Shown in pieces: positions 24,477-25,004 of a stretch of DNA of 64,000 bases (within the stretch, counting starts at the first letter, position 1; every line of letters starts with the position of its first letter). Below the pieces are notes generated by a model. It was not told the DNA's origin, did no database searches, and saw only the letters and a list, made by a program, of their open reading frames with translations. Location of the stretch: the NCBI RefSeq assembly GCF_003018255.1, contig NZ_CP027440.1; one strand, 5' to 3'. Source of the stretch: Escherichia coli. GTDB lineage: Bacteria; Pseudomonadota; Gammaproteobacteria; Enterobacterales; Enterobacteriaceae. Position numbers and translations under genes: made by a program.

Positions 24477-25004
24477 TATCGCGTCCTCAACAATGAATTT
24501 TGTGATGTGGTGCCTGGTGCCTCCAGGTGACGTTAACCAGTTAACAATTAACGCCGGATTGTTAGTTGATGTCTGTTACGCCAGTAAAAGACCGCTTGTT
24601 TTAACTGTTCCGCGTGCGCTTAGCCGCATTCACCGCATCACAAAATACACTTTAAAAATGGCGGATATCCATTTCCGCCGAATCACCAGAAAAGTGATAA
24701 CAGAGGTTGTTGTGGCGGTGTTGTCACTCAGGCGTATGGTCAACCTGACAACCCGGTGCATTTTCTGGAGCAATGGAGGAAGCCCCAGCCATACTTACCG
24801 CCGCGCCATTTCGCGGATTGCCACAACCGGAAGCGCACGATCGAATTACATTTAACGACGACATATACAGAGAGACTAACTTCGCCGAGCGCTTTCGTGT
24901 TGTGTGCCTGCTTTTAACCACGTCAGGCGAGGTGGACCTGTTATTCCCCAACAACAAGGAGCTTGTTAATCTGGATATCCCCAACAACAATAAGAGTATT
25001 GAAT

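Follow-up and report, generated by a model that had tools for sequence, protein, structure and literature searches.

What does a prophage keep in a stretch that holds no gene? The question is raised by positions 24477-25004 of the 64,000-nt stretch of Escherichia coli DNA analysed here (contig NZ_CP027440.1; hereafter the window), a gap between the dicB start codon on the minus strand (24476) and a plus-strand gene beginning with GTG at 25005. A first-pass annotation had described it as a non-coding, palindrome-rich gap in an early-left operon of lambdoid type, and had suggested that it could contain tL terminators, nut-like elements or a small RNA (sRNA). In our reading, the gap probably forms the non-coding centre of an operon of dicBF type that belongs to a Qin-like lambdoid prophage. 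Read on the minus strand, it carries a DicF homologue that has lost the ftsZ-pairing segment. Loci of this kind are already known and well studied, and DicF is among the first bacterial regulatory RNAs described.

The absence of a credible open reading frame (ORF) in 24477-25004 was borne out. Three ORFs in the gap (156 aa and 80 aa on the plus strand, 101 aa on the minus strand) have no match in Pfam or PHROG, while the flanking genes do match. In NZ_CP129348, a genome with 99.8% identity over 1.3 kb, NCBI annotates nothing in the gap, and homologues of the gap vary by indels of 1, 2 and 4 nt. A small protein gene, for example the plus-strand 80-aa ORF at 24773-25015, would find support in the 57-aa coding sequence called by NCBI at the equivalent place in SCU-171 (L006 1315-1488, WP_174144319.1, 'hypothetical protein'). 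However, the start codon lies in a variable hairpin of the leader described below, and neither the O157 nor the K-12 version has it. Between SCU-171 and the window the frame is disrupted by a 1-nt indel, the C-termini differ, and the ORF, which lacks a family match, is uncalled in the 99.8% identical genome. A protein gene is accordingly the least credible of the readings considered here, and WP_174144319.1, which lies on the strand opposite to the conserved DicF leader, has probably been called in error. Across the interval the homologues thus offer no conserved coding gene, the frame of the SCU-171 call not being conserved.

The neighbouring genes place the gap in a familiar operon. Directly downstream on the minus strand is dicB (24288-24476), encoding a cell-division inhibitor of 62 aa (Pfam PF05358, 114.8 bits; 'dicB' in the NCBI annotation of the 99.8% identical genome). 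It is followed by a ydfD-like gene (DUF1482; 24103-24291, minus strand), recognized by Pfam (PF07358, 56.1 bits) and by NCBI, and then by an exonuclease gene, xis and int. The first gene of the operon is ydfA-like (DUF1391; 25633-25785, minus strand), as judged from the NCBI annotation of the identical region and the position of ydfA in K-12. Upstream of it, likewise on the minus strand, lies a helix-turn-helix repressor gene (26081-26500), from which a Cro-like gene diverges. The order in the K-12 Qin prophage is dicA, then ydfA-ydfB-ydfC-dicF-dicB-ydfD, and the layout of the window matches it, in agreement with the earlier placement in an early-left (pL-like) operon of a lambdoid prophage. 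Three points had escaped the first-pass annotation: dicB is the gene that follows downstream, function resides on the minus strand, and the region is one known for RNase III and RNase E processing. The same prophage also encodes a sok antitoxin RNA (117.7 bits; 31548-31722, plus strand) and two tRNA genes (36984-37142, plus strand).

Between the repressor and ydfA-like genes is a promoter-like site, TTTACA-17-CATTAT (25961-25989, minus strand), the sole sigma-70-like site in 23500-26500. The K-12 promoter dicBp is located ahead of ydfA, with DicA as its repressor (PMC10448788), and the site in the window is a candidate counterpart. The operon is interrupted by an inserted gene of unknown function, phrog_1244 (25005-25448, plus strand; PHROG E = 1.3e-48), which is antisense to the operon and frameshifted. 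In NZ_CP129348 the gene encodes 171 aa; by comparison, the window lacks 1 nt of a T-run at 25401, which shortens the product to 147 aa. Either the gene is a pseudogene or the deletion is a sequencing error in the homopolymer. When intact, the protein has a coiled-coil N-terminus and a zinc-ribbon-like C-terminus (CPKC...CLYC). Convergent transcription from this gene could lower read-in from the upstream promoter.

The right end of the gap (24916-25004) is a junction without a K-12 counterpart. It contains two exact copies of TCCCCAACAACAA (24945-24957 and 24978-24990), 33 nt apart and just upstream of the plus-strand gene. This repeat-bearing stretch is also present in SCU-171, there ahead of a different plus-strand cargo gene. 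A promoter scan of 24916-25004 gave nothing above threshold. The junction is probably the control or promoter region of the inserted gene, and its occurrence in SCU-171 hints at a transferable regulatory region serving inserted 'moron' genes.

The centre of the gap corresponds to the dicF slot. When the minus strands of K-12 and the window are aligned, long identical blocks lie on both sides of the slot and the middle is replaced: K-12 reads UUUCUGGUGACGUUU-GGCGGUAUCAGUUUUACUCCGUGACUGCUCUGCCGCC-CUUUUU and the window reads UUUCUGGUGA-UUC-GGCGGAAAUGGAUAUCCGCC-AUUUUU. From this positional homology and a terminator scan, a short allele of a DicF-family sRNA is predicted at 24654-24692 on the minus strand (UUUCUGGUGAUUC-GGCGGA-AAUGGAUA-UCCGCC-AUUUUU), with a seed (24692-24683), a terminator stem-loop (24679-24660) and a U-tail (24658-24654). 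The earlier suggestion of an sRNA thereby gains a likely identity, the gap apparently holding the positional homologue of DicF.

The short allele shares with K-12 DicF its slot between leader and dicB, the flanking sequence and the operon architecture. The seed UUUCUGGUGA, the GGCGG...CCGCC stem and the U-tract are kept, the seed retaining 10 of the 11 nt of canonical UUUCUGGUGAC and being unpaired when the sRNA is folded alone. The RNase E context UAUCAC↓UUUUCUGG at 24693/24692 is retained as well (A-C↓UUU, the arrow marking the cut). RNase E prefers RN↓WUU, which this context fits. In contrast to K-12 DicF, the short allele is about 19 nt shorter, has 'UUC' in place of 'CGUUU' after the seed, and lacks the inner terminator stem-loop CAGUUUUACUCCGUGACUG with the sequence complementary to ftsZ, which is replaced by the 8-nt loop AAUGGAUA.

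Both palindromes singled out by the first-pass annotation are present at exact positions, GTTAACCAGTTAAC at 24532-24545 and AAATGGCGGATATCCATTTCCGCC at 24656-24679. A terminator had been among the elements suggested for the gap, and the terminator scan independently recovers the hairpin of AAATGGCGGATATCCATTTCCGCC with its U5 on the minus strand: 24679-24660 forms 6 pairs (5 of them GC) around an 8-nt loop, followed by the tail AUUUUU of an intrinsic terminator. Because the K-12 alignment puts the dicF slot there, the hairpin is, judged by that alignment, the DicF terminator read on the other strand. At -11.1 kcal/mol it is weaker than that of K-12 (-15.9 kcal/mol), and taken alone it folds with z = -1.55, within the range of shuffled sequences; its significance derives from homology and position, not from folding energy. 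In the window-type haplotype an alternative hairpin, AAAUGG/CCAUUU (24654-24679, minus strand), excludes the terminator stem and would mask part of the U-tail. This alternative is absent from the O157 and E. albertii copies, which carry C, not A, after the stem.

The short allele escapes the Rfam model of its own family. A search with DicF (RF00039, gathering threshold 48 bits) returned nothing in the window at E ≤ 10 (651-nt search), whereas the K-12 control scored 76.7 bits, and the O157 copy of the short allele gave no match at E ≤ 1.

Upstream of the sRNA, positions 24915-24693 (minus strand) form a conserved DicF precursor leader, recognized by alignment with K-12 and 45 other loci and by a consensus fold with compensatory pairs built on 46 distinct homologues. 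The fold comprises stem S1 (24897-24882 with 24844-24828), in which one pair occurs in C-G, U-G and U-A states, stem S2 (24827-24820 with 24716-24709), an invariant hairpin (24816-24801) and a variable hairpin (24791-24766) whose sequence changes between alleles while the pairing stays. In one allele class the whole inner leader domain gives way to a short loop that the S2 sequence closes (GGUUGU-GAAUA-ACAAC), and such replacement of an entire domain by a loop closed by the same stem further supports the predicted leader structures. A candidate match to an AgvB-like anti-sRNA (RF02702) was rejected, since it scores 15.2 bits (E = 4) where the gathering score is 56; its CACAACA motif sits in the conserved stem S2.

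In K-12, a 190-nt DicF species depends on RNase III and a 53-nt species on RNase E (PMC10448788). The point 137 nt upstream of the K-12 DicF 5' end falls in the 3' arm of S1, which would place an RNase III cut at approximately 24833 in the window and makes S1 the putative RNase III site yielding the long species. A long-range duplex between upstream CGUGCGCU and downstream AGCGCACG was considered as the RNase III site and discarded: a G-to-A change in STEC346 is compensated within local S1 and not in the downstream segment.

Downstream of the sRNA, the DicF-dicB spacer (24477-24653, minus strand) is a structured dicB 5' leader that hardly differs from its K-12 counterpart. Several hairpins lie within a closing duplex of about 20 bp (24651-24631 with 24512-24492), among them a CCUGG/CCAGG hairpin (24527-24513) and a conserved hairpin (24555-24529) that contains the GTTAAC..GTTAAC palindrome and in which GTTAACCAGTTAAC sits. 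The RNAalifold consensus of 43 distinct sequences has 44 pairs, three with compensatory changes, and two loci carry paired changes in both arms of hairpin 24555-24529, G-C becoming U-A and U-A becoming G-C. Covariation against related prophages, which had been proposed as a check, thus yields consensus folds with compensatory pairs in the dicB leader as in the precursor leader. The dicB leader, the left third of the gap, folds on the minus strand with z = -3.1 (1 of 200 shuffles as stable), and the whole gap with z = -2.9 (1 of 100). The 3' end of DicF can be set by the intrinsic terminator or by RNase III, and an alternative 72-nt DicF with an RNase III-made 3' end has been reviewed (PMC9438474). 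The 19 nt beyond the 53-nt end would correspond to the 5' arm of the closing duplex of the dicB leader.

The dicB leader resembles another RNA family, STnc100 (RF02076), which it matches with 33 bits in the window (E = 2e-5) and 34.4 bits in K-12, short of the gathering score of 47. Nine other loci also give sub-threshold matches (29.5-41.3 bits). The prophage itself supplies material for comparison, since its late region holds five full-score STnc100 elements (119-172 bits; 37959-38171 and 39931-40910, plus strand), four of them arranged head-to-tail at 39931, 40190, 40460 and 40721 with a spacing of about 260-270 nt and a terminator each. Alignment of the dicB leader with these five true copies reveals a shared core, consisting of the closing stem, GGUGAAU, the CACCnGGAGGCACCnGGCACC hairpin and a further hairpin in the corresponding position; the match to the family is significant (E about 1e-5). 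The STnc100 terminator is missing, its place being taken by the dicB ribosome-binding site and start codon. The leader differs accordingly from STnc100 in being the 5' UTR of dicB and not a stand-alone gene, and in having no terminator of its own.

This likeness could mean that the main product of the locus is a stable structured RNA of STnc100 type from the DicF-dicB spacer (24444-24661, minus strand). Such a reading is favoured by the shared core and by matches that are significant, though sub-threshold, in the window, K-12 and the nine other loci, and in O157:H7 the RNAs of true STnc100 copies are abundant (PMC5331693). It is nonetheless improbable: the gathering score is missed, the promoter scan finds no separate promoter, and the sequence has no STnc100 terminator but leads directly to the ribosome-binding site and start codon of dicB. 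A preprint on PasD/STnc100 locates these sRNAs near Q and the late region, with dicB and DicF unmentioned. The likeness of the dicB leader to STnc100 points to a structured module shared by early and late lambdoid operons, possibly an RNase III processing module.

The remaining suggestion for the gap was a nut-like element. The pL operon of lambda has tL terminators and an RNase III site in the N leader, and the locus in the window is similar in combining an intrinsic terminator with RNase III-type duplexes in an early-left operon. It has no sequence similarity to the lambda elements and no nut site supported by the boxA search, and its terminator serves at once to form the 3' end of an sRNA. 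Its place upstream of a terminator in the early-left operon of a lambdoid prophage would suit an antitermination site (boxA/boxB) for an N-type antiterminator. Yet boxA-like matches (CGCTCTTWA-like) number zero in the gap and stand at chance level across the window (18 found, 20.9 expected). The annotation of the identical region names no antiterminator between repressor and integrase, as far as annotation goes, and the homologous K-12 region is accounted for by RNase processing, not antitermination. The nut proposal is consequently one to which we give very little credence. A parallel in biogenesis is offered by SroC and other intra-operonic or 3' UTR-derived Hfq sRNAs, which likewise arise by early intrinsic termination and RNase E processing of a polycistronic mRNA (PMC9438474). 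Unlike SroC, the DicF-type locus is prophage-borne, and the sRNA sequence in its slot is swapped between alleles.

The extent of this swapping was surveyed in 120 loci with a conserved right flank, obtained from a scan of viral contigs (L007-L126). Between conserved flanks, the sRNA slot (homologous to 24654-24720) is occupied by at least seven alleles, in which different 5' seeds are combined with different terminator loops. Canonical DicF occupies 54 of the 120 loci, followed by type C, with a different loop and a shortened leader (34 loci), type E, which keeps the DicF loop with a new 5' end (10), type F, with a ...AUUGCUGGCUGAU loop (8), the short allele of the window (7), type D, with a GGCGGGUAUCCGUU... 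hairpin (3), and type G (2); two loci are unclassified or cut off. When one or two example loci per class were searched with the Rfam DicF model, type E alone reached the gathering threshold (62 bits), seven others scored 29-41 bits, and the short allele and type D gave no match.

The short allele is common. Its 47-nt core occurs in 441 of 5,426 complete E. coli genomes, in 417 of them at ≥99% identity, and occupies 526 places in total; among the matches listed, none has an annotated feature under the core. Many carriers are O157:H7 strains, in which the core adjoins dicB without the inserted gene, and at least three flank types accompany it; in Xuzhou21 the short-allele locus is at 2,637,193-2,637,311. 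The leader has 8,962 matches in complete E. coli genomes. The E. albertii copy has one loop substitution and a K-12-type leader end. In a species-level scan the exact flank sequence was found in Escherichia genomes only, save for a few metagenome contigs. Four contigs binned as Nanosynbacter, Collinsella, Lachnospiraceae and Ruminococcus (L135-L138) carry exact Escherichia prophage sequence and are most likely mis-binned E. coli prophage contigs. Searches for the short allele in cultured phage genomes, and for its sequence in searchable full-text papers, returned no match. The short allele, and the escape of most slot alleles from the Rfam model, appear to be undescribed in the searchable literature.

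What the loss of the inner stem-loop entails can be anticipated from the division of labour within DicF. The 3' region of DicF pairs with the ribosome-binding site of ftsZ and its 5' end with xylR, and a 3'-region mutant, DicF9, loses control of ftsZ while keeping control of xylR (PMC5069750). Unconstrained RNAduplex predictions gave long, unrealistic duplexes no better than shuffles, and cofolding was used instead. With xylR, canonical DicF reaches ddG -14.9 (0 of 100 shuffled targets as good) and the short allele -8.9 (6 of 100); with pykA the values are -11.2 (0 of 100) and -7.0 (15 of 100). With ftsZ, the short allele yields -5.4 (45 of 100) and canonical DicF -11.1 (9 of 100), a low-powered comparison in which even the established pairing is not significant. 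The short allele may be inert in trans, its seed being just 10 nt long and its predicted pairing with xylR reduced.

The main rival to a functional sRNA follows from these losses. The short allele would be a decayed DicF remnant that keeps a cis function alone, namely an intra-operon terminator or attenuator and processing sites that set dicB expression, which is close to the first-pass idea of a tL terminator. The ftsZ-pairing loop is gone, complementarity to xylR is shortened, the Rfam DicF model gives no match and the hairpin is weaker than that of K-12. The loop also resembles an internal deletion of longer-stem alleles such as GGCGGATATCAG...CTGATATCCGCC. Against decay, the seed and RNase E context are exact whereas the nearby leader differs between haplotypes and in E. 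albertii; neither would be required for termination alone, so that their conservation counts against a remnant. In copies of the short allele found through the right flank alone, a 33-nt core is identical and nearby leader positions vary. That the core is kept while the nearby leader varies is suggestive, the core-versus-flank count having chosen its sequences by the core itself. Conservation of the seed and RNase E context could still reflect recent common descent, and the invariance of the core may result from recent spread, many carriers being O157:H7. On balance, decay to a purely cis-acting element is rather unlikely.

The alternative is that the short allele works as an Hfq-dependent sRNA, a separation-of-function DicF that retains the seed module only, exerts no division inhibition and forms one member of a modular cassette. 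This possibility is put forward tentatively. The course of events that we consider most likely for the locus as a whole is the following, in which the promoter, cleavage sites, Hfq binding, trans activity and targets are predictions. Transcription would start at the repressor-controlled promoter (~25961-25989) and proceed leftward through the inserted antisense gene into the leader (24915-24693). RNase III would cut the leader duplex S1, and RNase E would then cut UAUCAC↓UUUUCUGG and create the 5' end of the small RNA. The intrinsic terminator GGCGGA-loop-UCCGCC-U5 (24679-24654) would set its 3' end. The predicted product is a DicF homologue of about 34-39 nt, whose seed UUUCUGGUGA, terminator and U-tail are the parts that an Hfq-dependent sRNA needs. 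Polymerases that read through would enter the structured leader (24653-24477), whose closing duplex of ~20 bp is a likely RNase III substrate, and continue into dicB. The short allele would no longer repress ftsZ. In trans it would act only via its 5' seed, with weaker complementarity to xylR-type targets, and in cis it would still attenuate transcription into dicB.

The new part in this otherwise familiar locus is a common short allele, invisible to Rfam and without the ftsZ-pairing module. DicF copy counts in pathogenic E. coli, and the phenotypes ascribed to them, may miss or mis-assign it, and the set of alleles in the slot amounts to a natural experiment on which DicF module does what. 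If the short allele is a working regulator, it would be an additional and so far uncounted DicF-family member in around 8% of complete E. coli genomes, among them those of O157:H7 strains, to which 'four dicF copies' have been attributed. The dicF locus would then be a fixed slot in which seed and loop modules can be exchanged between conserved flanks for RNase III and RNase E processing, and prophages could retarget host regulation by recombination.
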